Positions 23,753-57,844 of a DNA stretch of 60,206 bases are shown one piece after another. The notes beneath the pieces were generated by a model that saw only the letters and a list, made by a program, of their open reading frames with translations, made no database searches and was not told the DNA's origin. The translations under genes were made by a program, and so were the position numbers. This DNA comes from Pseudomonadota bacterium. GTDB taxonomy: Bacteria > Pseudomonadota > Alphaproteobacteria > Caulobacterales > Caulobacteraceae. Numbering within the stretch: the stretch's first letter is position 1; each line of letters opens with the position of its first letter. The stretch lies in assembly GCA_040390885.1 (NCBI GenBank), contig JAZJXN010000036.1:29194-89399 (forward strand), given 5' to 3'.

Positions 23753-23847
23753 GGCCGCTATGCGCCAGGAGCGGACATTCGCTTGCCGCCCGAATGCGGA
23801 CGCTCCGACGCCCTGCCCCCGGCGTCCGCTTTCGACCCATTGCGGAC
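23753..23847 (+). repeat. ~95-bp three-unit element, copy A
   Basis: GGCCGC-TATGCGCCAGGA-GCGGAC, ATTCGC-N13-GCGGAC, 22-bp spacer, GTCCGC-TTTCGACCCATT-GCGGAC. Confidence 0.75.
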
Positions 23848-23882
23848 ACAACGCCAAGCCCTCGCCAAGCTGCACTTGTAGG

Positions 23883-23943
23883 TGTCAAAGATATTTGACA
23901 ACCGGCGCCATGGGCGTCATGGCTATGTATAAGATATTTGACA
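23883..23943 (+). promoter_or_regulatory. Two 18-bp operator-like sites, probably for the XRE regulator
   Basis: TGTCAAAGATATTTGACA (23883-23900, palindromic arms, contains TTGACA) and TGTATAAGATATTTGACA (23926-23943). Confidence 0.7.
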
Positions 23944-23957
23944 CTGCGGAGACGGAC

Positions 23958-24374
23958 ATGTCGTTTCGAGAGATATCAGCGTGGGTGATGGGCGCGCTGA
24001 TGTGCGCCACAGGCGCCCATTATCTGAAGACATACTTCGCTGCGGCGCAGGCGCTCGGCGGCGCGCCGCCGCTTGAAATGTTCATTCCCTATGCGGCCTT
24101 CGTGGTGACAGCCTCCATCGTCGTTCAGATCGTGCTGGCCAGTGTCGCGCCGAAGGAGGCCGACCGGCCGCCGGACGAACGCGAACGTCCGCTGCTCTGG
24201 CGCGCCGGCCACTGGGCGGGGCTACTTCAGGGCGGGCTCTGCGTCGCGGCGGTGCTCTACGTCGGTCACTCTGGCGACACGGCGATCTTGTTTCACCTGA
24301 TCGTAGGGGGTCTGATTATCTCGCAGGTCGTCGAGTATGGGCTCCAGATCGCCTTCCTTCGCCTCCGCTCATGA
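23958..24374 (+). CDS. Small four-TM membrane protein
   Basis: GGAGA then ATG; MSFREISAWV...DERER motif; ATGA overlap with the XRE gene. Confidence 0.75.
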   Translation: MSFREISAWVMGALMCATGAHYLKTYFAAAQALGGAPPLEMFIPYAAFVVTASIVVQIVLASVAPKEADRPPDERERPLLWRAGHWAGLLQGGLCVAAVLYVGHSGDTAILFHLIVGGLIISQVVEYGLQIAFLRLRS

Positions 24375-24595
24375 TCGGCCGGAAGCGACTGCCGATCACC
24401 AACCGGGTGCCGGCATTTCGCGAGAAGCAACAGGCCATGAGCCAGGCGGCGCTCGCCGACGCGATCGGCGTCAGTCGCCAGACAGTGGTGGCGATCGAGA
24501 AGGGCCACTATTCGCCGAGCTTGGAGACTGCGTTCCGCATCGCCCGACTGTTTGGGGTCGGCGTCGAGGACGTTTTCGGGTGGGATGAGCAATGA
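24371..24595 (+). CDS. XRE-family HTH transcriptional regulator
   Basis: MSQAALADAIGVSRQTVVAIEKGHYSPSLETAFRIARLFGVGVEDVF. Confidence 0.92.
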   Translation: MIGRKRLPITNRVPAFREKQQAMSQAALADAIGVSRQTVVAIEKGHYSPSLETAFRIARLFGVGVEDVFGWDEQ

Positions 24596-25899
24596 TGAAG
24601 GCACGCATTCGGTGGCGGCGAGTCGCCATCAAGGTCTCGGTGACACTGCTCCTCGCCGTCGGCTGGGCTGGTGCGATCGGTTACGGGGCGCTGGCGGGCT
24701 GGTGGCACAGGCCGATCGCTGAGCGAGGCGACGCGGCGGCGTTCACGGCGGCCGCCACCCGGATGATCGACAGCAGGATGCGCGGCAACGCCGCCTTCGT
24801 CCTGGTCGAACGCGGCCGCGTCTTCGCGCAGGTCTATCGATCGCGGGGGGTGTCGGTTGGTCCGCACACGAGATTCCAGGTCGCGTCGCTCAGCAAGTGG
24901 CTCACGGCCTTCGGCGTCATGAGGCTGGTGGAGACAGGCAGGCTGAACCTTGACGCCCCCGTGTCACGCTATCTGACGCGCTGGCGGCTCCCCGCGAGCG
25001 CCTACGACAACCGGCAGGTGACGGCGCGACGCCTGCTCAGCCATACTGCGGGACTGACTGACGACCTCGGCTTCGGCGGGTTCCCACCCGGGGTCCCGGT
25101 CCAGTCGCTCGAAGGGGCGCTTACCCGTGCAGTGGACGCCTCGCCCGGCAAGGACGGTCGGGTGCGCGTGGGCCAAGCGCCTGGGTCGTTCCGATATTCC
25201 GGCGGGGGCTATGCCCTCCTCGAGCTACTGATCGAAGAGACCGCCGGCGAGCGGTTTGAAAGCTATATGGACCGCGCGATCTTCAGGCCCCTGGATCTGG
25301 CGGACACAAGCTTCTCCCCGCCCACCGAGCGCGACGATGTCGCCCAGTCCTTCGACACCAAGGGACGCGCCACACCACTGCAACGGTTCTCGGCCCCGGC
25401 CGCGGCGGGCCTCTACACTTCGGCGGCTGACATGGTCCGGCTGGTGCAGGCGCTGCGGCCGGGTACGCGGGGTGAGCCGGTTGGCCGCGGCGTGCTATCT
25501 GCACGGTCGCTGGAGCTGATGCGCCGGCCGGAAGCCTCGCAGTACGGCGCCGCGATTTGGGGGCTCGGGACCATCCTCTATGCCCCGAACGACAGGGGCG
25601 GCTTCATCATCGGACACGACGGCAACAACACGCCGGCCATTAATACCGCCGTGCGGATCGATCCCGCTACAGGCGATGGGATCGTGCTACTCGAGACCGG
25701 CGACGAGCGGCTCGCGACCCAGTTGGCGGGCGAGTGGGTGGTATGGAAGACCGGCCACATCGATCTGTTCCAGTTTTCCGCCGAACTTGCCCGCGTGACG
25801 CCAGCGCTGTTCGCGGGCCTAGCGTTCATCCTGCTCGGCGGCTTGGCGTCCCTGCTGACACCAAGTTTGCGCGAGCGCCCAGCGGGCGCGCTCAGGTGA
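24592..25899 (+). CDS. Membrane-anchored serine hydrolase (beta-lactamase/AmpC-like fold)
   Basis: FQVASLSK (SxxK), LLSHTAGL, FRYSGGGY, GHDG; N- and C-terminal TM helices. Confidence 0.88.
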   Translation: MMKARIRWRRVAIKVSVTLLLAVGWAGAIGYGALAGWWHRPIAERGDAAAFTAAATRMIDSRMRGNAAFVLVERGRVFAQVYRSRGVSVGPHTRFQVASLSKWLTAFGVMRLVETGRLNLDAPVSRYLTRWRLPASAYDNRQVTARRLLSHTAGLTDDLGFGGFPPGVPVQSLEGALTRAVDASPGKDGRVRVGQAPGSFRYSGGGYALLELLIEETAGERFESYMDRAIFRPLDLADTSFSPPTERDDVAQSFDTKGRATPLQRFSAPAAAGLYTSAADMVRLVQALRPGTRGEPVGRGVLSARSLELMRRPEASQYGAAIWGLGTILYAPNDRGGFIIGHDGNNTPAINTAVRIDPATGDGIVLLETGDERLATQLAGEWVVWKTGHIDLFQFSAELARVTPALFAGLAFILLGGLASLLTPSLRERPAGALR

Positions 25900-26007
25900 A
25901 TGCTGCATTCCGAAGCCCTAGGTCCGCTCACCACCCCCAGCACGCGTTCGGAAGGTCTGCTATGCGGCTGGTCGCCTTGAGGGTCTGCTTTCCGGCTCGC
26001 GTCCAAC

Positions 26008-26031
26008 GGGCAAGAACGACCCATTGCGGAC
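26008..26031 (+). repeat. Partial copy of element (third unit)
   Basis: CGACCCATTGCGGAC (26017-26031) is identical to 23833-23847; GTCTGCTATGCG at 25955 resembles the first unit. Confidence 0.6.
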
Positions 26032-26193
26032 CTACGGCAGGCCCGCAAACGGGCTCGCTCAACCTTGCGCGGTTCTACTTCGATCACCTGTACGGCATCG
26101 CCTGATGCGTCACGCCTAGGCGACGTTGTGTCGTTCTCCAATGCCCCGTACAGGCAGTTCGAAGGAAGCAATGGGTCCTCGAGAGGCAGTGAG

Positions 26194-26592
26194 TTGACGA
26201 TAAGAACATCAGGGTCGACGATTTCGCATGAAGTCTCAGAAGAAACCCGGTCAGTGCTCGTGCGCCTCAGCGCCCAATCACACTTTAGCCACATGGTTAC
26301 TCACTTCAGAGAACTCATAAAAACTCGACCCGAGCTAGGGGGCTACGACTATATCTGCGACCTGACCTCCTTCTCCGGCGATGCCTTCGTCCAAGACGTC
26401 CAACAAATCGCCCAAGAGTATGCGCCGTTTGCGGCGACCGGTCCAACATTCACGTGCTTTGCGACACGAGATCCGCACTTTGGACTCTGGGCGCAATCGA
26501 TGGACCATATGTTCGCTGGCCGAAAACATGTCGTTTTTTCGACTGTTGATGACTGCGTCAGGTTCCTCAGAGAGAGGCGGGCGACGGTCTAA
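26194..26592 (+). CDS. Hypothetical protein, possibly STAS/SpoIIAA-like
   Basis: GAGAGG then TTG; YDYICDLTSF and VFSTVDDCVRFL resemble SpoIIAA-like family patterns; visibly AT-richer than neighbours. Confidence 0.55.
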   Translation: MTIRTSGSTISHEVSEETRSVLVRLSAQSHFSHMVTHFRELIKTRPELGGYDYICDLTSFSGDAFVQDVQQIAQEYAPFAATGPTFTCFATRDPHFGLWAQSMDHMFAGRKHVVFSTVDDCVRFLRERRATV

Positions 26593-26654
26593 ACAAGAAC
26601 TTCTCTACCGCCCGCGATGGCGAAACGGCTGGCCTGCGCCCGCCCGGCGTCAAC

Positions 26655-26678
26655 GTCCGCAACCCACCCGTGGTGGAC
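26655..26678 (+). repeat. Single hairpin unit of the element family
   Basis: GTCCGC-AACCCACCCGTG-GTGGAC (12-nt loop). Confidence 0.55.
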
Positions 26679-26919
26679 TTTCGGGCCGTCCGCTCTCGGC
26701 GAACGCCGAGCGAGGCGTTCGACTTCCCAGATGCTTGAGTTCGCCTCAGGCGCGGCGACCGACGAGCACACGACCCAGGGTCTGTGGCGGTGTAAAGCGG
26801 TCGCTCGCTTGGAGGCCCGCCATCGTCGATCGCACTCCAGCGTAGGAGCCGATTTCCGTTCAGGTCTCTGGCGGCGGTCACGCCGCTAGAGGTCCGCTGA
26901 GGGGGAAAGGAGGCCAGCG

Positions 26920-27684
26920 TTACGTCCGGTTGATGGACACGCCGCCATCGACGAGTGTCGCTGTACCGGTCATGAAGCTTGAGGCGTCGGAGGCGAAGAA
27001 CGCTGCCGCGTTGGCAATCTCCCCTGGTTGAGCAATTCGCTTCAGGGCGTGCAGTCCCGAAACGACGGCCAGCGATTCTGGCGTATCAGACACCATCCGG
27101 CCCATCGGCGTATCCACACCCCCGCAGAGGAGCGCGTTGGCGCGAACCTTCTGCGCTCCGAACTCTGCGGCGATCACCAGGGTCAGGCCGACTAGCCCGG
27201 CTTTGGCCGAGGCGTAGGCGGCCATGCCCGGAAACCCCACAGTGTGACCGACAAACGTGGAGGTGAAGATGATCGAGCCACCGCCGCGCGCGAGCATGGC
27301 GGGGATCTGGTATTTGGCGCCCAGGAAGGCGCCGGTCAGATTGACGTCGAGGGTTTCGCGCCATCCGGCGACGGAGATGTGCGGTGTCGACTCCATCTCC
27401 GGGATCGCTCCGGCGTTATTGAACGCGATGTCCAGCCCGCCGAACAGGTCTGTAGCGGTGCGCACCAGGCCGATCGAGGTTTCCTCCTCGCGGACATCGC
27501 CGGCCACTGCGACCGCATTTCCACCATTGGCTTTGATGGCTGCGACAAGTTCGGCAAGCTCAGCCTCACGACGCGCTGACACCACGACGTTGGCGCCGAG
27601 CTGCGCGAACAACCTCGCCGTGGCGTGGCCTATCCCAGAGCTGGCTCCGGTTACGATGGCGACCTTGTCTTTAAGTTGATGCAC
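26920..27684 (-). CDS. Short-chain dehydrogenase/reductase
   Basis: TGASSGIG, NNAG, YASAK, DGG. Confidence 0.92.
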   Translation of the reverse strand: MHQLKDKVAIVTGASSGIGHATARLFAQLGANVVVSARREAELAELVAAIKANGGNAVAVAGDVREEETSIGLVRTATDLFGGLDIAFNNAGAIPEMESTPHISVAGWRETLDVNLTGAFLGAKYQIPAMLARGGGSIIFTSTFVGHTVGFPGMAAYASAKAGLVGLTLVIAAEFGAQKVRANALLCGGVDTPMGRMVSDTPESLAVVSGLHALKRIAQPGEIANAAAFFASDASSFMTGTATLVDGGVSINRT

Positions 27685-28151
27685 GGCGATCCCTTTCAAT
27701 GAAGGGGCGCACATCCCACCACAGACGCAGCCTAGCGACCCGGTTCTTGCGGCCGGGCCCGTTGCGCGACTGGCAGGCAACGAACGCCGCGAACCGGCGG
27801 TCCGGCGTCACGTTACTGTGGAGCCGGATGTCCTGCTCCATCGTACGCGTCACCCCAGGATCGCATCCCCGCGGCGACAGCGCGATGGCCACCAGGCAGG
27901 CGGCGGGCGCGCCGACGATCTGCCCTAGAAGCACCCATAAATGTCCTCTTCGACCGAACCAGCCGGCACGATTCTCGACATGTAGAAATCGGCCGGCGCC
28001 AATGTCGACCCTGGTTTGTCACGAATGAAACCGCCCCCTATATGCCCGCCGCCGGTTGGCGAGACCGGGCGAGTTGTTGGCGTCTGGTCCGCAGCCTCGG
28101 TTCCGCCACAGGCAAAGGGATCTACCGTCAGCGGTTCCTCTCACCCCGGGT

Positions 28152-28176
28152 GGAACGGGACGCTTGCTGATCTGTT
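28152..28176 (+). promoter_or_regulatory. sigma-EcfG (sigmaT)-type promoter of the mfd-like gene
   Basis: GGAAC-N16-TGTT, 25 bp before ATG 28202 with AGGAGA RBS. Confidence 0.65.
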
Positions 28177-28201
28177 CGGTCTGCCCAGGAGACGGGTGGC
28201 C

Positions 28202-31200
28202 ATGAAAGACACACCAGAGACCAACGCGCCCGATGCGGCACAGGTCGACGCGATCCTTGCGCCGGGCGGTGCGGTCGCCCCGGAGACGACCCAGCGACGT
28301 GCCGGACGGCGACAGCCCCCCGCGGCTTGGTGCGCCCAAGCCCTAATTGCGCCCGTCCGTGCGTCCGGACTGAAGGGCTTTCTGTATGCAGCCTCCAGTG
28401 AGCGCCGCGCCGCCGAAATCGGCCGGGCGTTGCGCCAGTTCGCGCCGGATATCGAGGTCCTGGTGCTCCCGCCGTGGGACTGCCTCCCCTACGACCGTGC
28501 TTCGCCATCGCGAGAGTGCATGGGGCGCCGGATGGCGGTGCTCGCGCGGCTTGGCGCGCCGGCGACGTCCCCCCGCGTGCTCATCGCGGATGTCGACGCC
28601 CTGATGCAGCGGGTTCCGCCACTGTCCATTCTACCCACCGCGTTCCGGACGTTTCGCGTCGGCGACACCCTCGACCGCGCTGCACTCGACGCTTTTGCCG
28701 CGGCCACGGGATATGTCGCTGATGATCGCATCGACGAGCCGGGCGAAATCGCGGTTCTTGGGACGGTCGTCGACATCTATCCCGCGGCGGCGTCGATGCC
28801 GGTCCGGATCGTGCTGGACGAACAGGATCGCATCGTCGAGCTCAGGGCGTATGACCCGCTGACCCAACGCACACAAGAAGCCTCCGAAGAGGTGACGGTC
28901 GGCCCGGCGTCCGAACTCATCCTGAGCGAGGGCCGCTCCGAAGGGCGCGCGCCCGGTTCCGAGCACCGCGCGCCAGAGATCTACGGAAAGATGGCGACGG
29001 TCTTTGACCTCGTCGGCGGGTCGGCATATGGCGCCGATACGAAGGCGAAGGCCCGGATCAAAGCGTTCGCCGACCAGGTGGCGGAGGCCTACGACGCGCG
29101 TCGCTCGTTGGGAGCCGACGATGGTGTGAGGCTTCTGCCGCCGGCCAAACTCTATCTGACCCCCGCGCTTTTCAGGCGAAAGGCGGCGGGGCGCGTACAG
29201 GCCAGCCTCGATGGCGAAGCGGTTCAGACGATCACCAATTTCGCGCTTGAGCGTAATCCGGGTCGCGCATTCTGCGACTTCGTGCAAGCGCGGCTGCAGG
29301 CTGGTCACCGGGTTGTAGTAGCGGGCATGCCGCACGAAGTCCGCGCCTTGGCACGGGCGGTCAAACGCGGCCTCAACATCGCGCCCGCCTCCGTCGACGC
29401 CTGGGATACCGTTCTGGGCGCTCCGGGCGGCGCCCTGATGGCTGTTGCCGCTGATGTGGACACGGGCTTCGAACAGGCGAGCACGCGGATTGTGCTCATC
29501 GCCGCCTCCGACGTCCTCGGCGGTCGGTTGGCCGCGCGCCGCGCGCAAGGCGGTACGGTGCAGCTAACCGACCCCGATCTAAGACTGGGCGATGTCGTGG
29601 TCCACGAGGATCATGGCCTCGGCGTTCTGCGCGGCCTGGAACCCGTCGATGTCGACGGCGTCGGCCGCGAAGCGCTTCGGCTGGAATATCATGGCGGCGC
29701 CCATCTGCTGGTTCCGATCGAGGAGTTCGACAAGGTTTGGAGGTATGGCGCCGAACCCGAAGCGGTCTCTCTTGACCGCCTTCATACAGACGCGTGGCGG
29801 GAGCGCCGGGTCGAGCTGAGCGCCGACATCGATCGTACGGCGGCGCAGCTCGTCGAGCTTGCCCGCGAGCGAGCCTCGACCAAAGGGCCAGTCATTCGCC
29901 CGCCCAAAGCGGCCTATGCGCGATTTGCCGCCCGCTTTCCCTATCCTGAAACCCCCGACCAGGCCGCAGCCATCGACGCGGTGCTGGAGGACCTTGCCTC
30001 CGGCCGCGTCATGAGCCGGCTGGTCTGCGGCGACGTCGGCTTCGGCAAGACCGAAGTCGCGTTGCGCGCGGCCGCAGCGGCGGCGCTGAGCGGCAAGCAG
30101 GTCGCCGTGGTCGCCCCGACGACCGTCCTGGCGCGGCAACACTTTGAGAGCTTCCGGCGCAGGTTTGCCGGTACCGGGGTGAGGGTCGCCCGACTGTCGC
30201 GGCTCGTTTCCCCCTCCGAGAGCCAGGCGGTTAAGGCAGGTCTCACCGACGGCTCGATCGGGATTGTCGTGGGCACCCACGCTCTTGGCGGCGCCGACGT
30301 CAGCTTCGCTGATCTTGGCTTGCTGATCATCGACGAGGAGCAACGCTTCGGCGCCCGGCTGAAGACCAGACTCCGGGACCTGGCGCCGAACGCCCACCTG
30401 CTGACCATGACCGCCACGCCGATCCCCCGGACGCTGCAGTTGGCCATGGTCGGGGTGGAGGATGTCAGTGTCATCGCCACGCCGCCCGCGCGGCGGCGGC
30501 CCATCCGAACCTTCTTCGCGCCGTGGGATCCCGCGACCGTGAGGACAGCGCTGCTGCGGCAACATCGCCGAGGCGGCCAGAGCTTCGTCGTGGCGCCGCG
30601 GATTTCAGATCTCGATGGCCTGGCGGAGGAGCTTGGCCGCTTGGCGCCCGAACTCACACTCCGCATCGCCCACGGCGAATTGCCGGCCGAAGCGGCGGAC
30701 GAGGTGATGGTCGGCTTCGCGGCCGGCGAAGGGGATGTGTTGCTCGCCACCAACATCATCGAAAGCGGCCTGGATGTGCCCGGAGCCAACACCATGCTGG
30801 TGTGGCGCGCGGATCTCTTCGGCCTCGCCCAGCTTCACCAGCTCAGGGGGCGGGTCGGGCGTGGACGTGCCCAGGGAATTGCCTACCTCCTGCACGACCC
30901 GGACGAGACCCCCAGCGAGGCGACCCGAGCCAGGTTATCGACGCTTGAGGCGTTTGACCGGCTAGGATCTGGTCTATCGATCAGCGCCCGGGACCTCGAA
31001 TTACGCGGGGCGGGCGACCTCGTCGGCGATGACCAAACCGGGCACCTGAAACTCATCGGAACCGCCCTCTATCAAAAGCTCCTGACCCGCGCTGTCGAAG
31101 TTGCAAAGGGTGAAATATCGGATCTGGATTGGCATCCGGAGGTCAACGTCGGCATCACAGGAGCCTTTCCCGAAAGCTATGTCCCCGACGTCACCGTGAG

Positions 31201-31558
31201 GATCAACCTGTACGCGCGCCTGGGACGCATGACACAGCCGGACGAAATCGAGGAGTTCATTGAGGAGCTGGAGGACCGCTTCGGGCCTCCGCCTCAGGAT
31301 GTGGTCGGCCTTGTCGAGGTCGCTCGGCTGAAGTCTTGGGCGCGAGCCGCGAGCGTCAGACGGATCGACGCCGGTCCAAAAGGGGTCGCGTTGACTCCAT
31401 CTGGTCCGATCACGGCCCCTCCCGCTGGTTATGCGGTCACCGACGGGCGGCTTGTCCTGCACGGAGACTTCGCTGAACCGTGGACCAGACTTCCGGATAT
31501 CCGTCGCGGGCTAGCGTCGATGTGCAGTGCTGGAGCACTCCGGCAACACACAATCTGA
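28202..31558 (+). CDS. Mfd/TRCF-like SF2 helicase (probable accessory paralog)
   Basis: WDCLPYDRASP, UvrB-like GEIAVLGTVVDIYP, CarD/RID GDVVVHEDHGLG, GDVGFGKTE, DEEQRFG, TATPIPRT, QLRGRVGR, TRG RDLELRGAG, D7 EELEDRFGPPP. Confidence 0.9.
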   Translation: MKDTPETNAPDAAQVDAILAPGGAVAPETTQRRAGRRQPPAAWCAQALIAPVRASGLKGFLYAASSERRAAEIGRALRQFAPDIEVLVLPPWDCLPYDRASPSRECMGRRMAVLARLGAPATSPRVLIADVDALMQRVPPLSILPTAFRTFRVGDTLDRAALDAFAAATGYVADDRIDEPGEIAVLGTVVDIYPAAASMPVRIVLDEQDRIVELRAYDPLTQRTQEASEEVTVGPASELILSEGRSEGRAPGSEHRAPEIYGKMATVFDLVGGSAYGADTKAKARIKAFADQVAEAYDARRSLGADDGVRLLPPAKLYLTPALFRRKAAGRVQASLDGEAVQTITNFALERNPGRAFCDFVQARLQAGHRVVVAGMPHEVRALARAVKRGLNIAPASVDAWDTVLGAPGGALMAVAADVDTGFEQASTRIVLIAASDVLGGRLAARRAQGGTVQLTDPDLRLGDVVVHEDHGLGVLRGLEPVDVDGVGREALRLEYHGGAHLLVPIEEFDKVWRYGAEPEAVSLDRLHTDAWRERRVELSADIDRTAAQLVELARERASTKGPVIRPPKAAYARFAARFPYPETPDQAAAIDAVLEDLASGRVMSRLVCGDVGFGKTEVALRAAAAAALSGKQVAVVAPTTVLARQHFESFRRRFAGTGVRVARLSRLVSPSESQAVKAGLTDGSIGIVVGTHALGGADVSFADLGLLIIDEEQRFGARLKTRLRDLAPNAHLLTMTATPIPRTLQLAMVGVEDVSVIATPPARRRPIRTFFAPWDPATVRTALLRQHRRGGQSFVVAPRISDLDGLAEELGRLAPELTLRIAHGELPAEAADEVMVGFAAGEGDVLLATNIIESGLDVPGANTMLVWRADLFGLAQLHQLRGRVGRGRAQGIAYLLHDPDETPSEATRARLSTLEAFDRLGSGLSISARDLELRGAGDLVGDDQTGHLKLIGTALYQKLLTRAVEVAKGEISDLDWHPEVNVGITGAFPESYVPDVTVRINLYARLGRMTQPDEIEEFIEELEDRFGPPPQDVVGLVEVARLKSWARAASVRRIDAGPKGVALTPSGPITAPPAGYAVTDGRLVLHGDFAEPWTRLPDIRRGLASMCSAGALRQHTI

Positions 31559-31672
31559 CCAAACCGCGTCGACTTCGCTCGCATCCAGCAGCCGCGACTT
31601 TGGGTGAGCTTTTTTGGGCGTCGCGGCCTAAACTGCCGCGGCTAGCGCCGCGCTGGCATCGGAGTAACGAAT

Positions 31673-32674: not shown

Positions 32675-32712
32675 CCTACGCAAGGCCCCGAGGGGTGCGC
32701 CTGCAATCCTGT

Positions 32713-33081: not shown

Positions 33082-33089
33082 CTGGCGGT

Positions 33090-34052: not shown

Positions 34053-34056
34053 CCGC

Positions 34057-42490: not shown

Positions 42491-44866
<2,376 letters not shown>

Positions 44867-49283: not shown

Positions 49284-49320
49284 GGTCTGATCGCCTTCCG
49301 ATCGACAGGTGCGATGGCAA

Positions 49321-49345
49321 ATCGTCTGAGGGCGAGAGTTGTTCC
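49321..49345 (-). promoter_or_regulatory. sigma-EcfG-type promoter
   Basis: Minus strand GGAAC-N16-CGAT, 37 nt before ATG 49283. Confidence 0.55.
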
Positions 49346-49411
49346 AGGCCAGGCGCGATAGCGGCGCCACGACAGCGCGGCGGCGGAGCAATAACGCGCT
49401 GTGCGCGCGAG

Positions 49412-50023
49412 TCAGGCCCAGGCTTCAATGATTTCAGCGACCGACGCCGTCTCGAGCTGCTGGCCAAAGCGGTCATTGTAGATGTCCAGCGTCGCCTCGT
49501 GAGTTTTATTGGCGGAACTGCAGAGCGCGTCAGTCGCCACCACGACGCGGTAGCCGTGGTCGATGGCGCCAAGGACGGTCGCCAGGACGCAAATGTCAGT
49601 CTCGCCCCCCGAGATGACGAGCGTGTCGACCTCGCGCGCGGACAGCTGATCCTGGAGACGGCGATCAAACCAGGGAGAGTAGGCGTGCTTGTCGATCACC
49701 CGGGCCGGCGGAACGAAGAGCTCCAGTTCCGGCAATAACCCCACCATCTCGGCGCCAAGGAGGTCGAGCGTCATCTCCGACCAGCGCTGATAGTATCGAC
49801 GCCACGTCCCCCTGCCGTCCCCCGGTGATTGCACGGGAATGAACCGTGTGAACCAGGTCTCGGCCGGACGCTTTTCGCACAATTGCACCACCTGGGGCAG
49901 CACCCGCCGCATCCATGGCGTCCGCCAGTTAGTGTCCTCGGCAAACATGCGCTGCATGTCGACGCACAGGTGCGCGGTTGTCGCTGACAGTGCGCCGTGT
50001 CGAAGTCCCGTATTCTCGGGCAT
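49412..50023 (-). CDS. Cysteine hydrolase (isochorismatase family)
   Basis: VDMQRMF, IDKHAYSPW, GGETDICVLAT (D-K-C triad). Confidence 0.9.
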   Translation of the reverse strand: MPENTGLRHGALSATTAHLCVDMQRMFAEDTNWRTPWMRRVLPQVVQLCEKRPAETWFTRFIPVQSPGDGRGTWRRYYQRWSEMTLDLLGAEMVGLLPELELFVPPARVIDKHAYSPWFDRRLQDQLSAREVDTLVISGGETDICVLATVLGAIDHGYRVVVATDALCSSANKTHEATLDIYNDRFGQQLETASVAEIIEAWA

Positions 50024-50069
50024 AGGCTGTCCGTCGCCTCGGCAAGGCCGCCGCGTCGTGTCGACGCCG

Positions 50070-50852
50070 CTAAAGTTGAATTCTCGGTTCAATCCTCAAC
50101 AACGGGATGTCACATCGTTCCGGTTGGGTGAGGATATAGCGCACCGCGACGGCGATATCTTCGGCCCGGAGCATCTCGTGCTTGCGGATCTTCTCTCGCT
50201 GCGCCGCCGGAGACGACGTGTTCATGTCACTCCCGACCGTTCCAGGTTCGACGAGCGCGACCCGAATGCCCGTCTTGGCCACCTCTTCGCGGAATGACTT
50301 GGCGAAGGCGCGCACGCCGCCCTTGCTGGCCGCGTAGACCGCGCTGCCCTCGCCGTCGGCGTCGGCGCTGATCGATCCGACCAGAGCGATCTGTCCGGCG
50401 CCGTCTCGCCCGGCAAGGCGTTTGGCGGCTTCCTGGGCGAAGGCGATGTATCCCGCAAGGTTCGTCTCAAGGACATAGCGCCACTCATCTTCGGGGGTCT
50501 CAGCCAGCTTTCCCGCTCCCAAGCCGGCATTGGCGATCAATACGTCGAGCCCACCCAGCACCTCATCGCTTCGCGCCAGGACGCGGTCGATGTCGGCGCG
50601 CCTTGCCTGGTCGGCGACCATGCCCTCGGCGTCGCCGCCGACGCTGCGGATGTGTTGAAGCGCGTCCTCCAGTTCCGGCGCATGGCGGCCGAAAATGAAC
50701 ACCTTGGCGCCGTCGGACGCGAGGAGCGCGGCGACGGCCCGGCCAATGCCGGTGGTGCCGCCGGTGATCAAGACGCGCTTGCCATTCAGCGGGGGCTCGG
50801 CGGTATGGATATCGCGGTCGGGCGAGAACGAGCGAGGCTCAGGGGCGGTCAT
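50070..50852 (-). CDS. Short-chain dehydrogenase/reductase
   Basis: TGGTTGIG, ANAG, YAASK. Confidence 0.92.
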   Translation of the reverse strand: MTAPEPRSFSPDRDIHTAEPPLNGKRVLITGGTTGIGRAVAALLASDGAKVFIFGRHAPELEDALQHIRSVGGDAEGMVADQARRADIDRVLARSDEVLGGLDVLIANAGLGAGKLAETPEDEWRYVLETNLAGYIAFAQEAAKRLAGRDGAGQIALVGSISADADGEGSAVYAASKGGVRAFAKSFREEVAKTGIRVALVEPGTVGSDMNTSSPAAQREKIRKHEMLRAEDIAVAVRYILTQPERCDIPLLRIEPRIQL

Positions 50853-50884
50853 GGCGGTCTCGGGGCTGATGGTGTTTTTGCGTC

Positions 50885-50909
50885 AACGTCAGCGTCGCGC
50901 CACCGTTCC
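50885..50909 (-). promoter_or_regulatory. sigma-EcfG (sigmaT) promoter, exact consensus
   Basis: Minus strand GGAAC-GGTGGCGCGACGCTGA-CGTT. Confidence 0.75.
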
Positions 50910-51287
50910 GTTGCGCCGCTTCGCCTAGGGGCCAGCGGCCCCTGGTCGGCCTCTGCCGGGCGCCCGCCCTGCGCGTCTCCGGCGCCTGTATTCACCGAGC
51001 CTTACTCTGGACAATCAACGGACGTCGGATGAGCGTCTGAAGATCAGGATAACGTCTGCGAACCTGCTTGCGCCCAGGGCTGCGCGGCTCCCGGCAGCGC
51101 GCTTCTGAGACGAGCGGCAGGCGGCCGGTTTGCCGCGGTGACGTTGGGCGGCAGGGAAGAGGTACGCTCGGCCGCAGACCGTCTTCACAGCCGGCGCCTG
51201 GTTTTGGCACCATGGCCGTCGGCCCCGCTTGGATAGATCGTCCGACACCCTATCTATCGCACCCACCCTGGAGCAAAGGACGTCCGC

Positions 51288-51551
51288 ATGGCGACCGGCT
51301 GGGCCCATGAAGGCGCGGTTCTCGATCAGATCGAAGACACCATCACTGACGGCGTCCTGACCGCCCGCGCTCGCCTCCCCGTTGGCGAGGGCGCCGAACA
51401 TTGCATTGAGTGCGGCGACGCCATCCCTGAGGCTCGGCGAAAGGCGTTGCCCGGCGTTCGCACCTGCGTCGGGTGCCAGGCCGGCCGCGACAGCCGAATC
51501 GTGCTGGCGGGGATAAATCGCCGCGGCAGCAAAGACAGCCAACTGCGCTAG
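51288..51551 (+). CDS. DksA/TraR C4 zinc-finger protein (YbiI-like)
   Basis: MATGWA..GAV.DQI, CIECG..IPEARR.ALPGV..CV.CQ, NRRGSKDSQLR. Confidence 0.92.
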   Translation: MATGWAHEGAVLDQIEDTITDGVLTARARLPVGEGAEHCIECGDAIPEARRKALPGVRTCVGCQAGRDSRIVLAGINRRGSKDSQLR

Positions 51552-51868
51552 GCGCCCGTTGCGGTCGGATCGGGCTGAGCCAACCACCCGGCCTACGGTG
51601 TTGATGGCCGCAGCCGGTTGAGCCGGGCGAGCTCGTTCCGCCACACCCGCTCGCCCAGCGCGCGCTTGACCGTATCGACATCGACCGCGCCTGCGCTTCG
51701 CCGACGTCGTCGCCGACCGTCGTGCCCCTGCACGCGGCGCGCGCCCCTGAGGTGACCGAGAAGCCGCTGAACCGCTTTGCGTTTGTCGGGGCAGTTCGGC
51801 CCTCCACCCTGCCGGCGCGTCCGGCCAAGCAACCGGCAGCAGGCGCGACGACCAGGCTATGGCTAGAC

Positions 51869-52804
51869 CTAAAGCGGACGGCTCGCGTCCTCGGCCCTTA
51901 TCCGCTCGCGGAGTCCGCCGTCTATTCTGAGGCCATCGTCCACCGATTCATGGATGGCGCCTTGGCTGGGAGGCGCACAAGACGCCTTCATTGCCTCGGC
52001 CTTGGATAACTTGGCCGAAATCCGCTCCGTGAGCTTCGGGGCCAGATGATGCGAGATGTCCGACCCCTTGGCCTTCCAACCGACCGGCTGCTCCTCCTTC
52101 GGATCAAGGCACGCGTGCACGATGGCGTCCGCCACCAGCTGGGGGTCGTCCAGCAGCGCCATTCGAGGCGCATGACCTGTGTAGTTCGCCGCGTGCGTCC
52201 ACCACGGCGTGTCGACGCCCCAGGGCATGATGGTCCCGACGCGAATATTGTCCTCGTCAGCCAGCTTGAGTTCTTCGTTGAGAATGCGGCCAAGGCTCAG
52301 GACCGCGGCCTTGGTCGCGGCGTAGGTGTTCTGCAGCGCCAGTGGGGTTTCACTGTCGATCGATCCGGTGTTGATAAGCGTACCGTAGCCCTGCACGCGG
52401 AACTGGTTGAGCGCCGCGTGGGCGCCGTAGATCAAGCCCTTGAGGTTTACGTCGACCAAACGGGCATGGTCCTGGATCGGGATGTCCCAGAAATAGCCGA
52501 TGGCGCCGACGCCGACGTTGTTCACCCAGACGTCGATGCGACCGAACGCCGCCACGGCCGCCCCAGCCAGAGCGGTCACCTGGGCCGGGTCGCTGACGTC
52601 GGTCACCACTGCCAAGGCGCGGCCGCCCGATGCCTCGATCTCAGCGACGACTTCATCGAGCATTGCCTTGCGGCGCGCAGCGACCACGACCTTGGCCCCA
52701 TGCGCTCCCAGTTGCAGGGCGGCGCCCCGACCAAAGCCGCTCGAGGCGCCGGCGATCACCACGACGAGTTCGGAAAGGTTGGAAGGACGGCGGGGCATGT
52801 TCAA
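51869..52804 (-). CDS. Short-chain dehydrogenase/reductase
   Basis: AGASSGFG, VWVNNVG, YAATK, DTPWWTHAANYTG. Confidence 0.9.
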   Translation of the reverse strand: MNMPRRPSNLSELVVVIAGASSGFGRGAALQLGAHGAKVVVAARRKAMLDEVVAEIEASGGRALAVVTDVSDPAQVTALAGAAVAAFGRIDVWVNNVGVGAIGYFWDIPIQDHARLVDVNLKGLIYGAHAALNQFRVQGYGTLINTGSIDSETPLALQNTYAATKAAVLSLGRILNEELKLADEDNIRVGTIMPWGVDTPWWTHAANYTGHAPRMALLDDPQLVADAIVHACLDPKEEQPVGWKAKGSDISHHLAPKLTERISAKLSKAEAMKASCAPPSQGAIHESVDDGLRIDGGLRERIRAEDASRPL

Positions 52805-52825
52805 GATCTCCTGTTCGGCGGGGTG

Positions 52826-52851
52826 AACAACGCGCAGGCGTGATTGGTTCA
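52826..52851 (-). promoter_or_regulatory. Possible sigma-EcfG promoter
   Basis: Minus strand TGAAC-N17-TGTT upstream of AGGAG RBS. Confidence 0.45.
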
Positions 52852-53178
52852 GGCCACTTGCAACAGGACAGGGCTCGCCCGGCCCAGGTCTCAGGCTTCA
52901 TGCGAGGGCGCGAAGCCGTGGCGATGCAGCCGCCGTCAGAGGAGCCGCTCTGCAGGATGGTGCGTCGCGATCTGGGTCGCGATCTGGAACGAGTCGGTCG
53001 CGGCGGGATTGTCCTTCGCGCAGGCGCCGCCCCCGTCCCCTCCAGGGGCTATCCTGCGCAAAGCCCCCGGTTCGCGCCGGGGGCTTCGTCGTTAGCGATC
53101 AGAACGTCCGCGCGCGCAAGCGAACACGCCGCGAGGCTCGGCCGTGCCGGTTTTGGCCAGCGCCCGGCGTGTCGGGGC

Positions 53179-53203
53179 GCAACCGAACGCGCGTCAGGAA
53201 GTT
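53179..53203 (+). promoter_or_regulatory. sigma-EcfG-type promoter
   Basis: GCAAC-N16-AGTT upstream of the DUF4142 gene. Confidence 0.55.
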
Positions 53204-53245
53204 GCAGCTTCAAGCTCCATCAGGAGCCTCTATGGGGAGAGTGAA

Positions 53246-53929
53246 ATGATCCGTAATCGACTGTTCCAAGCGGCCGGCCTGACGGCGGTGCTGTTGCTTG
53301 CGGCCTGTGGTCAGAAGGCCGGTGAACAGCAGCCCGAAAGCCAGGACCAGGAGCCGACCAACATTGCCCAAGACGTCGCCGGGGCCGCTACGGGCGTGGC
53401 GACCGGAGCCACCGCGGCGCTCAGCACCGAGGCCTTCGTTCGCGATGCGGCCATCGCAGGCCTCTATGAAATCGAGTCGGCCAAGCTCGCCCTCGTCCGC
53501 TCAAAGAATCCAGATGTTCGGGCTGCGGCCGAGATGATCATCAAGGACCACACGGCCGCCGATAAGGCGCTGAAGGCGCTGGTGGCCGCCGGCAAGGCGC
53601 CTGGTCCTCTGCCGACGGCCCTGGATGAACGCCGCAAGGGGATGCTCGACAACCTCCAAGGGGCGGCCGCCGACGACTTTGACGATCGCTTCCTCGACCA
53701 GCAAACCATGGCCCACCATGAGGCTCTGCTGGCCTTCAATGGCTACAAAGCCGCCGGCGACAACGCTGACCTCAAAGCCTTCGCTGCGGCGACAGCCCCC
53801 AAGCTCGAGACCCATGCCAAGATGGTTACAGGTCTCGACCGCACGACCAATGCCGACGATGAAGCCGGCGCTGGCCAGCCAGCTCGGCCTAACGCGGTGG
53901 GACGGGCGATGGACGACATGAAGCACTAG
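53246..53929 (+). CDS. DUF4142 (ferritin-like) lipoprotein
   Basis: Lipobox LAAC; FV..AA...LYEIESAKLA, MIIKDH, FDDRFLDQQ..AH, P.LETH. Confidence 0.88.
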   Translation: MIRNRLFQAAGLTAVLLLAACGQKAGEQQPESQDQEPTNIAQDVAGAATGVATGATAALSTEAFVRDAAIAGLYEIESAKLALVRSKNPDVRAAAEMIIKDHTAADKALKALVAAGKAPGPLPTALDERRKGMLDNLQGAAADDFDDRFLDQQTMAHHEALLAFNGYKAAGDNADLKAFAAATAPKLETHAKMVTGLDRTTNADDEAGAGQPARPNAVGRAMDDMKH

Positions 53930-54027
53930 CGGCGTGGGCGCCGGCGGGCGATCCGTCGCCGCCGATGCTGGTCCGTGAGTGGTGTGCAGGTTAGCCGCCG
54001 CAACGGCCGCGTCGTCGCCTGTCGTCG

Positions 54028-54223
54028 CTATTGCGTCTCCGGGCGCCCCTGGTCCGCCCGTGCTTCGCGGATGGTTTGGTTCAACGCGCGCCGTATTCTC
54101 AGCCCCGAGATGTGGCCGTCGACGTTGCGAAAGCCCTCGCGCCTAAGTTGGGTGCGGATGTCGGTGAGGGAGGGGTATCGGCCGGAGCGCGTAAGCGCGT
54201 TCGACGGGATTATCGGACGGCAC
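54028..54223 (-). pseudogene. Frameshifted paralog of the 42033-42239 small protein
   Basis: VPSDNPVERAYAL / RSGRYPSLTDIRTQLRREGFRNVDGHISGLRIRRALNQTIREAR aligns with NVIERALTLAGSGQCTSMLDVKNRLQREGFEQIDAYLSGYSIRKDINRRL. Confidence 0.7.
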
Positions 54224-54225
54224 GA

Positions 54226-54477
54226 TCAGGTCGGCCGTTGTTGCAGAGCAACCGACCCGGTCCATCCGCGTCGCGCATCAGGTCGCCACACAGCGAGCGA
54301 TCCGTCTCTCAGCGTGACCTCAAGTCGGGCCAGCTCGCCAGCGGCCCATAGAGCTCTTACAAGGCGCCGTCCCGCAGCTTCGGCCTTTTCGCCGCTGAAG
54401 AACACCTGGTCGTTATCGAGGCAATCAGCTCGAACGGTCCAACCGGCGCCGGACGGTAGGACAGATACCTTCTTCAC
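54226..54477 (-). CDS. Small hypothetical protein
   Basis: AAGGGAG RBS, GTG; VSV.PSGAGWTV...FFSGEKAEAAGR.L..A...GE.A.L.V..RDG; ends 2 bp before the next gene. Confidence 0.6.
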   Translation of the reverse strand: MKKVSVLPSGAGWTVRADCLDNDQVFFSGEKAEAAGRRLVRALWAAGELARLEVTLRDGSLAVWRPDARRGWTGSVALQQRPT

Positions 54478-54517
54478 GAGGCTTCTCCCTTACTCACTCT
54501 GCATAATCTAGGCAGCG

Positions 54518-54700
54518 ATGCTCGCGCGTCAAGAACGCCAACATCTCAGCCACCCGGCAAAATGCCGCCTGGAGCAAGTCGACTTTGCGGGGCGAACCTT
54601 GAAATGCCCCCTCGGCTTCGTGAGCGATCAGATGTGTAACCTCTACGCGATGATGAAGACCCGCGCCGAAGCGGCCGCAGCCGTGACGCAGCCCCCCTAA
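54518..54700 (+). CDS. Small hypothetical protein
   Basis: 60-aa ORF divergent from 54477; protein-like composition; weak support. Confidence 0.3.
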   Translation: MLARQERQHLSHPAKCRLEQVDFAGRTLKCPLGFVSDQMCNLYAMMKTRAEAAAAVTQPP

Positions 54701-54958
54701 GCCTGCTCCACCTGGTCGCGTACAAGGTCTTCGCCCCGCCCCCGCGGTTTTCCAGGCTGGGCCAGCGAGACACGCCCTTCCCTCTCCTCCACGGCCGCGG
54801 CGATGAAGGGCCCGAGGATCATCGCCGCATCCACGCACCCGACCGCCACTCAAGGCGCGGGTCCTCTACTCACCCGACCTCCATATCGACACGCTCAGGC
54901 AAACGTCCCGCAACGTCCGCTGACGGGATCGAAAAGCGGCTTGGCCCGTATCCGGTCC

Positions 54959-55336
54959 ATGACCGCCCCGCTCAACACGCCGGACGGCCGCTATCTGGTC
55001 ATTCGCGGCCGGCTGTGGCGGCAGTCCAATCCGAGCCTTCCAGCGGACCGCCGCGCTGAATTGGTGACCCAGTTGATGGACGCCCGGCGCGCGGTCGGTG
55101 TGGCCCGCAAGGCCGGCGACCGGCAGGCCCTGACCGATGCGGGCCGGAGGGTCGACGAGGCGAAGGTGGGGCTCGGCGAACGCGGCCCTGTCTGGTGGAC
55201 GGATGGCGCACCCGACGTGAACCGCCATCTCGTCCACAATACCGCGTATGCGGAATGGTGGAAGGCGCTACCCGAAGCGTACCGCCAGGAGCCGAAACCT
55301 AACCGCCCGTCGAACAGGCTTCACCGGCCAAAGTGA
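54959..55336 (+). CDS. Conserved hypothetical protein
   Basis: TPDGRYLVIRGRLWR.SNP.L...LMDARRAV...VDEAK..LGERGPVWWTDGAPD.NRH...NT.YA.W is a recognisable conserved family. Confidence 0.8.
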   Translation: MTAPLNTPDGRYLVIRGRLWRQSNPSLPADRRAELVTQLMDARRAVGVARKAGDRQALTDAGRRVDEAKVGLGERGPVWWTDGAPDVNRHLVHNTAYAEWWKALPEAYRQEPKPNRPSNRLHRPK

Positions 55337-55595
55337 CGGGACGGGTCGCCAAGGCGCCGCAAATAGCCGTGGCGCGCCCCCCTGCGATCCAGGCCTCGGC
55401 AGCCGCCGGACAGGTTAGGCGGACGATAGCCGAAGAGGACTTCGTTGCTGCGCGGAAGACGGGCCGCTGTCTTGCTCATCGATCCGGGCCGACAGACTAT
55501 GGACCTTCCGGCGGCGTGGAGACAGAGACCCATCTTGAGCCGGGGTGTGGACATCGCCACAGGCAGCGGTGAGTCTTGAAGCACCGGCCTCACGC

Positions 55596-56040
55596 ATGAA
55601 GTTCGACCGCCCCCTTTCGAGGCGCCTTGTCAAACCGACGCCCGGGGCCCGGCCGCGGCCAGCGCCGTCCGCGCTCGAAAACCACTATCGCAGCACCTCG
55701 AATTGGCTCGTCGCCCGGCTCCGCCGGCGCTTCTGCGAGACGCTCGCCGACGATATCGCCCAGGAAGCCTATCTCCGAATGTCCCGGATCGACATGGATG
55801 AGGTGCGGCACCCCAACACGCTGCTCCTGAAGGTGGCCCTCAACGCCGGGCTCAGCCAGACGCGACACGCGGCCTCGCGGACTCGGGTCGCCAACCTGGC
55901 GCTTGAGTGCGACGCAGCCGAGATCGATGCGCCCTGCCCTCTGAGCAGGACGAGGCGCAACTGCTGAAGGAACTCATTGATGGGCTGCCGCCGCTCTACC
56001 GTGACGTGTTCCTCTTGAGCCAGTTCGCGGGAATGCCGTA
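55596..56040 (+). pseudogene. ECF (FecI-like) sigma factor, frameshifted and truncated in region 4
   Basis: ADDIAQEAYLR (region 2), frameshift ~55935, LKELIDGLPPLYRDVFLLSQFAGMPY, then the sigma homology stops. Confidence 0.75.
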
Positions 56041-56231
56041 CGACCAAGACATGCACCGCAACGAAGGCGGCTCGGTCGACCTCTATTTCGGTTCTGCCGA
56101 GCCAGCCGGAAACGCGGTCAACTGGATCCCGAACGCCCTGGGCCGCCAGTGGATTTCGTTGTTCCGCTCCGGACAAGCCGCTGTTCCAGAAGACCTGGCG
56201 GCTCGCGGCCTATGAACGCCTCGCAAACTGA
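56041..56231 (+). pseudogene. DUF1214 C-terminal fragment joined to the sigma remnant
   Basis: NEGGSVDLYFG..EPAG...NWIP......W..LFR / PDKPLFQKTWRL across a frameshift. Confidence 0.7.
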
Positions 56232-56413
56232 CAGATGGAGGCTACCAACGACGATATGAAATGTCGCGGCTGGCCCGCCGCCGGCGTAAGCGCGCCAACA
56301 CCGCATCACGTAATAGCGGCACGCTAAGGCGCTTATCCGACAGATGCCGCGCCAGCTTCGCGTAGTGTGGGTCTTCGTAGCCCGGTGCGAGCCGGCAGCA
56401 TGCTGGGGGTTCC

Positions 56414-56596
56414 TTGGATTCGAATGAACTGCTCAAGGCGGCCAAGGCCGCGCGCGACCAAGCTTCGAGATCAAGCGAAAGCATGGCGCAGGTTTTTATC
56501 TCTGCGGCGGAAGGCTTTGAGGCGAGAGCGGCCGCACTCCAACGCGAGGAGCGCGCTGCGATAGCCCGGCGAAAACCTCCGGGCGTCCCGGACTAG
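56414..56596 (+). CDS. Small helical hypothetical protein
   Basis: TTG start after GGGGG; MDSNELLKAAKAARDQA...FISAAEGFEARAAAL, loosely similar in pattern to 42239-42415. Confidence 0.5.
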   Translation: MDSNELLKAAKAARDQASRSSESMAQVFISAAEGFEARAAALQREERAAIARRKPPGVPD

Positions 56597-56757
56597 CAAG
56601 CACCGCTTCCGCTAGGCGTCGATAGAGGTCGCCTCCCGCCCGCGCGTTGACCTGTCCCGCAGAAGCGAACACTCAGCGGTATTGCAGCACCCAAGGACCG
56701 CTGCCTACCACTACGGACGCCGATGCCGCGGGTGTTCTCCAGCTGCCCGGGCTGCCG

Positions 56758-57010
56758 TCACAGTTTGTCGACCGGGGGCGGGAAGTACGAACCGTCCACC
56801 GCTCCCCCAAGCGGTCCGTAGAACCGGAGGGTGAACCGGTAGTCCCTTTCCCCAGGGGTCGGCAGCCAGTTGAACTCGGGCGTCCCCGAGGGCTTTTCCG
56901 GCCCGAAACAGAGGGTCAGCGAGCCGTCGTCGCCGTACTTCAGACCCGACTCCTTGTTCAGCAGGAACTTGTCGAGGGGATTAGGCAGCGTACGCATGTG
57001 CTGGGTAGCC
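56758..57010 (-). pseudogene. DUF1214 C-terminal fragment
   Basis: PNPLDKFLLN..SGLKYGDDGSLTL.FGPEKP......NWLPTP....FTLRFYGP; N-terminal DUF1254 part absent, homology ends next to element copy B. Confidence 0.75.
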
Positions 57011-57026
57011 GGGTTAAACCCGCGAC

Positions 57027-57119
57027 TTCTGCTATGCGCCACTACCGGACATTGGCACCCGCGCGGGACGTGGTCATTCGCAGATCGGGGATGAAGGCCC
57101 GCTTCCAACCATTGCGGAA
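57027..57119 (+). repeat. ~95-bp three-unit element, copy B
   Basis: TTCTGC-TATGCGCCACTA-CCGGAC, ATTGGC-N13-GTGGTC, 21-bp spacer, GCCCGC-TTCCAACCATT-GCGGAA. Confidence 0.7.
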
Positions 57120-57159
57120 GATGTGAGGGCTTAGCTCCTAAAGGCGGGGGCGCCCTTCA

Positions 57160-57633
57160 TTAATCCCTCGCCAACGCGCTGGCTGCCTTGCCGTCATACT
57201 GGCCGCCGAAGCTAGTCTTCAGGTAGGCCATGATAGTCCCGACGTTGGCATCGGGGTTCTTGCCCCGGAAATCGTTTATGGCCTCGCGCAGTTCCGATTC
57301 CGTCATCTGCTTTGGGCCATACGAGGAAAGGATTGCCAGTTCGGTTTCAGCGGCCTTGGCGCGCTGGTCGACCTTCGACGCATCGCTACCGGCTTCGATC
57401 AGGCGCGCGCGCTCGCTCGCGAGGTTCTCCAGCGTCAGCTTCGTACTCTTTAGGAACTTCGCGACGGTTGCGCCGACCTTTTCATCAGTGACTTTCGTCA
57501 CGCCGCGCTTGAACTCTTCGGTCGTGATCTGCGTAGCTTCGCCGATCAGTGTGGTGAGCAGGTCAGCCTTCAGACGGTCGTTCGCTTTCCGTGCGGCTAG
57601 CTGGTCAGCTTTGAGCTCGTCGAGCAAAGCCAT
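57160..57633 (-). CDS. GatB/YqeY-domain protein
   Basis: LLDELKADQLAARKAND...ELAILSSYGPKQMTESEL...VGTIMAYLK..FGGQYDGK. Confidence 0.85.
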   Translation of the reverse strand: MALLDELKADQLAARKANDRLKADLLTTLIGEATQITTEEFKRGVTKVTDEKVGATVAKFLKSTKLTLENLASERARLIEAGSDASKVDQRAKAAETELAILSSYGPKQMTESELREAINDFRGKNPDANVGTIMAYLKTSFGGQYDGKAASALARD

Positions 57634-57749
57634 GTCGCCGTCCTTTCAATTCAGGCTGTTCGGCAGCGGGGGAACGAGACCGCCGATCAAGCGCGGTTGC
57701 GCCGTAGGGCTACCGTAGCAGGCGCTAGCCATATCCATGTCCGCATTCC

Positions 57750-57844
57750 GTCAGCCATGCGCCAAAGGCGTACATCGGCGCGGAGGCGGAAAGCGGACGC
57801 TTCGCGCGGTACGCAATCGACGTCCGCTTCCCATCCTTGCCGAC
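57750..57844 (+). repeat. ~95-bp three-unit element, copy C
   Basis: GTCAGC-CATGCGCCAAAG-GCGTAC, ATCGGC-N13-GCGGAC, 23-bp spacer, GTCCGC-TTCCCATCCTT-GCCGAC. Confidence 0.7.

Follow-up and report, generated by a model that had tools for sequence, protein, structure and literature searches.

What are the three similar sequences of about 95 bp that stand beside small cargo genes in an alphaproteobacterial chromosome, and which enzyme acts on them? They lie in a stretch of 60,206 nucleotides (hereafter the window), positions 29,194 to 89,399 of contig JAZJXN010000036.1 (contig C36) of assembly GCA_040390885.1, a 3.47 Mb draft of a Caulobacteraceae genome with 69% GC in 246 contigs. A reading made earlier from the letters alone (the sequence-only reading) had described them as copies A, B and C of one three-unit element that brackets cargo genes like a cassette boundary. 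Our analysis suggests that each copy is a junction at which two putative recombination sites, R and L, meet face to face, that their 6-bp cores swap flanks, and that they are likely recombined like with like by a recombinase of about 210 residues acting in trans. We would give this reading a probability of roughly two in three.

The three co-oriented copies were confirmed, with the second box at +43 in each of them, and their alignment shows a mean column identity of 69%. A profile iterated from the three copies found 10 genome copies at E<0.01 on 5 of the 246 contigs, clustered and co-oriented. The repeated copies are real, while the single 95-bp element is not: it is a composite of an R site and an inverted L site, both of recombination type. 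The R site has a variable 9-bp outer arm, the 6-bp core GCGCCA, the box AGCGGACRTT and a second direct copy of this box 25-26 bp inward. The second unit of the sequence-only reading, taken there for an arm-loop-arm of its own, is this second binding box and not a palindrome. The L site consists of an arm, the 6-bp core GGGTSG and a box. It corresponds to the third unit, which turned out to be a site type of its own, inverted relative to R and also present singly, twice in the window (Table 1) and four times consecutively on contig C13. In A, B and C, the R site is on the + strand and the L site on the - strand, with 69-72 bp between core starts, and the interiors diverge widely while the cores are retained.

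An R matrix built solely from 32 sites of other genomes scored each R site of A, B and C above 15 bits (Table 1) and, at this level, gave 10 matches in the genome versus 2 on the reversed sequence. With the other-genome matrices, every site of A, B and C was recovered except the L site of B, and so were the two lone L sites. The bare dyad GTCCGC-N12-GCGGAC had 4 exact genome matches at spacer 12 versus 0-5 at other spacers; it is not enriched genome-wide, and the signal resides in the core plus boxes. The exact three-unit pattern occurred in no stretch of the viral contigs, and a looser version in 2 stretches of the genome contigs, a scarcity that argues away from a fixed 95-bp element. Copy A had a single 28-bp match when searched against plasmids, and none of 4227 Rfam families matched the window at gathering score. 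The 93 neighbouring site pairs, at about 40 loci, included 30 long L-L, 24 long R-R, 11 short R-L and 5 short L-R pairs, the last being the present element, and 8 of discordant polarity. A second gene-free junction type was seen at L116-L155, where R is followed by L with the outer arms facing and exactly 45 bp separate the core starts in 8 cases. In another family, G148 (L014, L019, L021), the sites are near-perfect single palindromes of 24-28 bp with the core GGGTCA, two of them 589 bp apart.

The comparison of flanks indicates that the sites are very probably exchange joints. When 167 sites were compared pairwise between loci, 12 pairs shared one flank only, and identity began at the first core base in 7 and ended after the last in 5. 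All 12 were R-R or L-L pairs. From the first base of the R core, the interior of copy A shares 87% identity with a copy on contig C222; this identity drops off at the L core of A, and the flanks are unrelated. The same type of interior was found beside four different neighbours, namely at A, on C222, at L214 (62/77 bases) and at L244 (57/77); at the latter two it is joined to the yqeY flank and replaces the interior of copy C. The R core is 2 bp short at these two junctions upstream of yqeY, which are possibly products of imprecise recombination. Tyrosine recombinases, as in Cre/lox and Xer/dif, produce exchange of this kind, in which only a 6-bp core flanked by inverted arms is involved.

As had been proposed, B and C flank exactly one gene, the yqeY-like gene, which lies in a 723-bp unit between their R cores. 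Of the 126 other genomes in the genus, 48 have close homologues, which stand in many different neighbourhoods, and 109 loci with homologues were compared. The upstream flank toward copy C is common to 14 of the 109 loci, 7 of which stop at -131 or -132, the far edge of the C core. Twelve upstream sequences, including the window (two near-duplicates and one locus without the anchor were dropped), show 82% identity over the 24 bp on the gene side versus 37% over the 50 bp beyond the C core, where each sequence keeps its own version of the boxes. The downstream flank is common to 14 loci; the alignments end near the L core of B (within about 6 bp) in 6, just before the R core of B in 4 loci with identical sequence, and at this R core or a little beyond it in 4. 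Three relatives have the interior of B in common and part from it immediately after the R core. For the XRE/serine-hydrolase operon on the side of copy A, said to be flanked by A and a partial copy, the bracketing L sites were found. Its homologues are all distant (64-80% alike), so the ends of the operon could not be mapped, and the block is a putative cassette. Two near-identical short repeats with GATATTTGACA lie just upstream of the operon, at 23878-23945, and are likely an XRE operator.

A module that moves between loci as a unit and whose two inner arms are inverted repeats recalls a miniature inverted-repeat transposable element (MITE). The 77-bp core-to-core module would then be a non-autonomous transposon with inverted ends, and its copies would serve as short homologies for ordinary or illegitimate recombination. 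We consider this very improbable. No target-site duplication was found, as no direct repeat lies outside the cores or the outer ends of A, B and C; R and L stand mostly alone, in L-L and R-R arrays, the short L-R junction making up 5 of 93 pairs; the interiors differ while the cores are kept; and the breakpoints lie at the core rather than being spread through the module. The proposal of cassette-boundary recombination sites thus holds in that junctions fall inside the element and the copies are clustered and co-oriented, and fails in that two sites are present instead of one element. None of the contrary findings that the sequence-only reading had named, such as scattered copies with target duplications, appeared in full.

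The sites form polarised arrays in related genomes. R sites were detected in 116 of 127 genomes of the genus, with up to 45 per genome. Their organisation was studied in nine near-complete genomes with the 166 R matches at E<=0.01 on the main chromosomes, leaving out weaker matches, second contigs and the fragmented genome G079. A neighbour within 20 kb was present for 128 of the 166 sites, versus a random mean of 24.5 and maximum of 44, and neighbouring sites were co-oriented in 109 of 111 cases. With origins placed at dnaA, some chromosome lengths rounded or assumed, and 21 sites within 200 kb of an assumed origin or terminus set aside, 136 of 145 sites followed the replichore, the strand that reads GCGCCA being the leading-strand template. 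Among clusters, 37 of 43 unmixed ones followed the replichore, besides 2 mixed and 10 ambiguous clusters. Cargo genes, called simply as the longest open reading frame (ORF), run with the site polarity in 20 cases and against it in 19; transcription direction is therefore no explanation for the array polarity, and a gene-strand bias as its cause was not supported. The strand bias could come from a replication-linked step or from the orientation of host islands. No description of a replication-strand bias of such sites was found in the literature searched. On contig C13 (8337-9633, L041), four co-oriented L sites stand 390-490 bp apart with one ORF per interval; one of these ORFs matches the integron-cassette family Hfx_Cass5 (E 7e-21), which suggests that cargo is shared with integrons.

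The same bias bears on the possibility that recombination takes place on a single strand folded by pairing of the L arms with the R arms, as for attC sites or REP/HUH substrates. In its favour, the - strand of A and C forms a long stem (z -1.7 and -2.2), and given the observed bias this strand would serve as the template for lagging-strand synthesis; attC arrays, too, show a replication orientation effect (PMC5371416). Over six folds of A, B and C, the z-scores range from -2.2 to +0.4 and are weak and inconsistent, and B folds no better than shuffled sequences (z +0.3 to +0.4). No attC boxes are present, the GTAG tag is missing from the + strand of every copy and occurs once on the - strand of the B stretch, and most sites are without a close partner for pairing. 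The R outer arm is also poorly conserved and changes at the junctions, so that complementarity is not maintained. We regard recombination of a folded strand as a slight chance.

A candidate gene for a dedicated tyrosine recombinase lies on another contig. Seven PF00589 matches were found in the host genome, and one of them is a short gene, C222:7548-8214. An R site precedes it, and L sites with single unknown genes between them follow it, ending in a copy-A-like L-R junction. A draft gap lies inside the gene; because a contig from a sequencing run, possibly that of the source, reads in frame across it, the gene is likely intact. Homologues have about 208 amino acids, PF00589 covers only residues 31-192 (the catalytic domain), and all catalytic motifs are kept in 19 of 21. 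Matches to the small recombinase were found in 342 plasmids and, within the genus, in 28 of 127 genomes; 7,880 of 7,999 scored proteins passed E 1e-40 in a protein search. When a matrix trained only on 9 sites of the host genome was used, a site within 250 bp was found for 16 of 21 small recombinases versus 2 of 29 P4-type integrases, and the sites near the small recombinases were in one orientation in 17 of 21. The linked tyrosine recombinase that was to be looked for thus has a candidate. The sequence-only reading had identified no cognate recombinase in the window. The window does hold a tyrosine recombinase, a P4-type integrase at its right end (Table 1); the 2 of 29 homologues with a near site do not support it as the cognate enzyme.

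By this linkage, the catalytic-domain-only tyrosine recombinase of roughly 210 residues is probably the enzyme of the sites. No solved relative was found by sequence; the predicted structure is mediocre (predicted local distance difference test, pLDDT, 66) and gave weak matches to tyrosine recombinases, the best being XerA at E 7.5e-4. A profile scan of two fragments of the C222 protein gave no match at IntI level and listed no Fim model. No description of a small recombinase with these sites was found in the literature searched, although one may stand in the subscription papers and supplements, which lay largely outside that search. An apparent joint from 8848 to 10684 on C222 was rejected as an excision, as it came from a contig with window copy A that maps onto two similar sites. 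Small recombinase genes or fragments on the G074, G070, G159, G011, G004 and G069 chromosomes, read by eye, appear to be transcribed along the replication direction. At L077 (G075), the 3' end of a small recombinase gene directly adjoins yqeY, the two genes standing tail to tail.

The sites may also be true joints for another enzyme, with the small recombinase as a passenger cassette; host XerC/XerD, the integrase of an island or a recombinase at an unlinked locus could then act on them. The sites are far more widespread than the small recombinase, any cassette gene has flanking sites and adjacency alone is no proof of cognate use, and, given what is generally known of Xer, a polarity tied to replication would be in line with a host system that depends on FtsK. 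On the other hand, the small recombinase has sites at near-fixed distances from both ends, its site-flanked share is higher than that of yqeY, its homologue on an enteric plasmid likewise has sites, and loci of P4-type integrases are mostly without them. The arms are presumably unlike those of XerC/XerD. It seems to us unlikely, on balance, that another enzyme does the work, although this is less remote than the transposon or the folded strand.

In the mechanism that we propose, the recombinase would act in trans from another locus. Crossover of R with R, or L with L, between direct repeats would add, remove or reorder the intervening DNA, such as the 723-bp yqeY unit and the single-gene L-L units, while a crossover at R combined with one at L would replace the DNA that the two sites enclose. 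In A, B and C, the 70-bp interiors would be gene-free fillers of the slot that holds fun(Z) in phage P2. Circular intermediates and the incompatibility of the R and L types would belong to this scheme, and a replication-linked step might, with less assurance, account for the strand bias.

Several observations weigh against like-with-like recombination by the small recombinase. R sites are present in 116 of 127 genomes versus 28 with a recombinase match. The median R count is 11.5 in genomes with the recombinase and 4 in those without it; 30 of 99 genomes without a match nevertheless hold at least 10 R sites, and a renewed search of five site-rich genomes gave fragments or distant recombinases and no full-length copy. 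Genome G087 has two recombinase matches and no R match. The candidate would have to recognise the sites without a core-binding domain, and the 21 recombinase loci are close kin and not independent counts. The 12 one-flank pairs are few and partly related, four L-L pairs coming from related loci, and it is among these 12 pairs that R-L recombinants were not found. No circular or deleted form and no joint at the B-yqeY-C region was found in contigs of four sequencing runs, a result that says little because contigs drop rare forms. Of the distinct yqeY flanks, 27 of 91 upstream and 16 of 90 downstream have a scoring site within 300 bp; in most relatives, yqeY may thus not be visibly a cassette, or its sites may have decayed. 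As for the strand bias, one of the nine chromosomes (G069) is without it, the replichore origins are inferred from dnaA, and the bias could stem from the orientation of host islands.

The features of the window are listed in Table 1. The GC content falls from about 22 kb onward, and because copies A, B and C stand between alpA and the P4-type integrase in this lower-GC stretch, they sit inside a genomic island. The interior of the island (26920-55400) holds many PAS histidine kinases, response regulators, short-chain dehydrogenases and stress-type small proteins, and the R matrix scan found no scoring R site at 26.7-57 kb. An Mfd-like (transcription-repair coupling factor, TRCF) helicase gene lies at 28016-31558, an unusual location for this family. 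Left of copy B, at 56000-57000, there are pieces of unrelated genes, apparently truncated near the site.

Table 1. Recombination-type sites, cargo genes and island genes in the window (positions of the window; scores from the other-genome matrices)
Feature	Position	Strand	Description
alpA-type regulator	23225..23524	+	PF05930; probably left part of host island
Copy A, R site	23753..23804	+	core GCGCCA 23762-23767, box 1 23770-23779, box 2 23796-23801, weak outer arm; 38.7 bits
Copy A, L site	23824..23847	-	core 23833-23838, GGGTCG on - strand; 29.0 bits
Small membrane protein, XRE regulator (24371-24595), serine hydrolase of beta-lactamase fold (24592-25899)	23895..25899	+	cargo between two co-oriented L sites, 2,184 bp core to core
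Lone L site	26008..26031	-	core 26017-26022, inner arm degenerate; 19.3 bits; the partial copy of the sequence-only reading
Single ORF	26065..26592	+	no Pfam match; between two L sites, 647 bp core to core
Lone L site	26655..26678	-	core 26664-26669; 22.8 bits; absent from the sequence-only reading
Copy B, R site	57027..57078	+	core 57036-57041; left end of yqeY cassette; 23.9 bits
Copy B, L site	57097..57119	-	degenerate core 57105-57110; under matrix threshold
yqeY-like gene	57160..57633	-	PF09424; cargo of 723-bp unit between R cores of B and C
Copy C, R site	57750..57801	+	core 57759-57764; right end of yqeY cassette; 23.2 bits
Copy C, L site	57822..57844	-	core 57831-57836; 17.5 bits
P4-type arm-binding integrase	58650..59846	+	tyrosine recombinase of host island, profile match; probably not enzyme of the sites

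A survey of P2/P4 defence hotspots published in 2026 treats transposons, homologous recombination and illegitimate recombination as possible, unproven routes of cargo exchange in the section concerned (PMC13586616). For this question, the sites mapped here pin down the crossover positions, distinguish two types of core and point to a candidate enzyme. If our reading is true, cassette arrays stand unannotated in most genomes of the genus, and the 208-residue recombinase, with two 6-bp cores that do not cross-react, would be a compact natural exchange tool. The sites would then form a little-described gene-shuffling system alongside integrons, of a basic kind that is known and barely described. 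The wider proposal is that they represent a third general cassette system across Proteobacteria, beside integrons and dif modules, with a catalytic-domain-only recombinase in trans, two incompatible sites, natural cassette exchange and a replication-strand-specific step that polarises chromosomal arrays, and that they also explain how cargo is exchanged at the P2 fun(Z) hotspot, for which a mechanism has been missing; here we see the chances as even.

Among known repeats, repetitive extragenic palindromes and their composites (REP, REPIN, BIME) do not fit, as the GTAG tag is absent from A and C, and about 10 clustered copies were found instead of many dispersed ones. MITEs were set aside for the lack of a target-site duplication in A, B and C, and the inverted repeats of the PIME preprint are features of a transfer origin (oriT). 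Integrons, sedentary chromosomal integrons and clusters of attC sites lacking an integrase (CALINs) resemble the present arrays in their co-oriented sites between single genes, in arrays with or without the enzyme and in an orientation tied to replication, as far as the account of attC arrays goes (PMC5371416). They differ in that here there are two site types, cargo lies in both orientations, and the enzyme has about 208 amino acids instead of being IntI; the hairpin, which varies among the copies, may be unreliable as well. No attC boxes (RYYYAAC ... GTTRRRY) were found on either strand of A, B or C. Co-oriented arrays (109/111) are shared with integrons, while a common cargo orientation (20 versus 19) and an IntI with a core-binding domain are not, the linked enzyme being a catalytic domain only. 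In this last respect the candidate resembles FimB and FimE, small catalytic-domain-only tyrosine recombinases of about 200 amino acids without a core-binding domain; these invert one promoter segment, which sets them apart. In a 2021 classification, all groups of tyrosine recombinases that its text describes have core-binding plus catalytic domains (PMC8138268).

The sequence-only reading had drawn an analogy to attC or pdif, and it is the pdif half that agrees with our results, as the sites have the arm - 6 bp - arm form with exchange at the central 6 bp. The pdif modules of Acinetobacter plasmids, in the passages that describe them, are likewise bounded by sites of about 28 bp with arms around a 6-bp centre, have a compatibility that depends on the site sequence and are exchanged without a transposase (PMC11705084, PMC13141974). 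Unlike the present sites, they are plasmid-borne and depend on host XerC/XerD, and in that study they formed cointegrates and not excised modules (PMC11705084). The sites here have GC-rich arms, stand in chromosomal arrays that are mostly direct repeats of one type, and are linked to a dedicated small recombinase.

The nearest relative is the fun(Z) slot of phage P2. Inverted repeats that flank fun(Z) in P2 and P2-like coliphages are credited to Nilsson, Karlsson and Haggard-Ljungquist (2004) in a review whose fun(Z) passage names no enzyme (PMC8987985). In P2, a matrix made from units of alphaproteobacteria and viral contigs gave 25.9 bits for a 28-bp unit on the G side of fun(Z), and the L matrix gave 11.3 bits for its inverted partner across fun(Z); the two-box R matrix had no match in P2. 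We infer that these units are the inverted repeats of the 2004 paper. Among 40 of 109 records of P2-like phages listed, all except the two of P2 itself stop matching at or just past the fun(Z) unit. Because the basic site is related to these fun(Z)-flanking sites, the element, which the sequence-only reading did not recognise as a named one, is not wholly unnamed. The two systems share the sequence family of the sites, the geometry of R on + and L on -, and a replaceable segment bracketed by two inverted sites, the interiors here being replaced at the R core. They differ in the cores, which are GTGCCA and GAGCGA in P2 versus GCGCCA and GGGTSG here, and in the second R box, which is absent from the P2 site. 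The long chromosomal arrays, the gene-free fillers, the strand bias and the candidate enzyme likewise distinguish the present sites.

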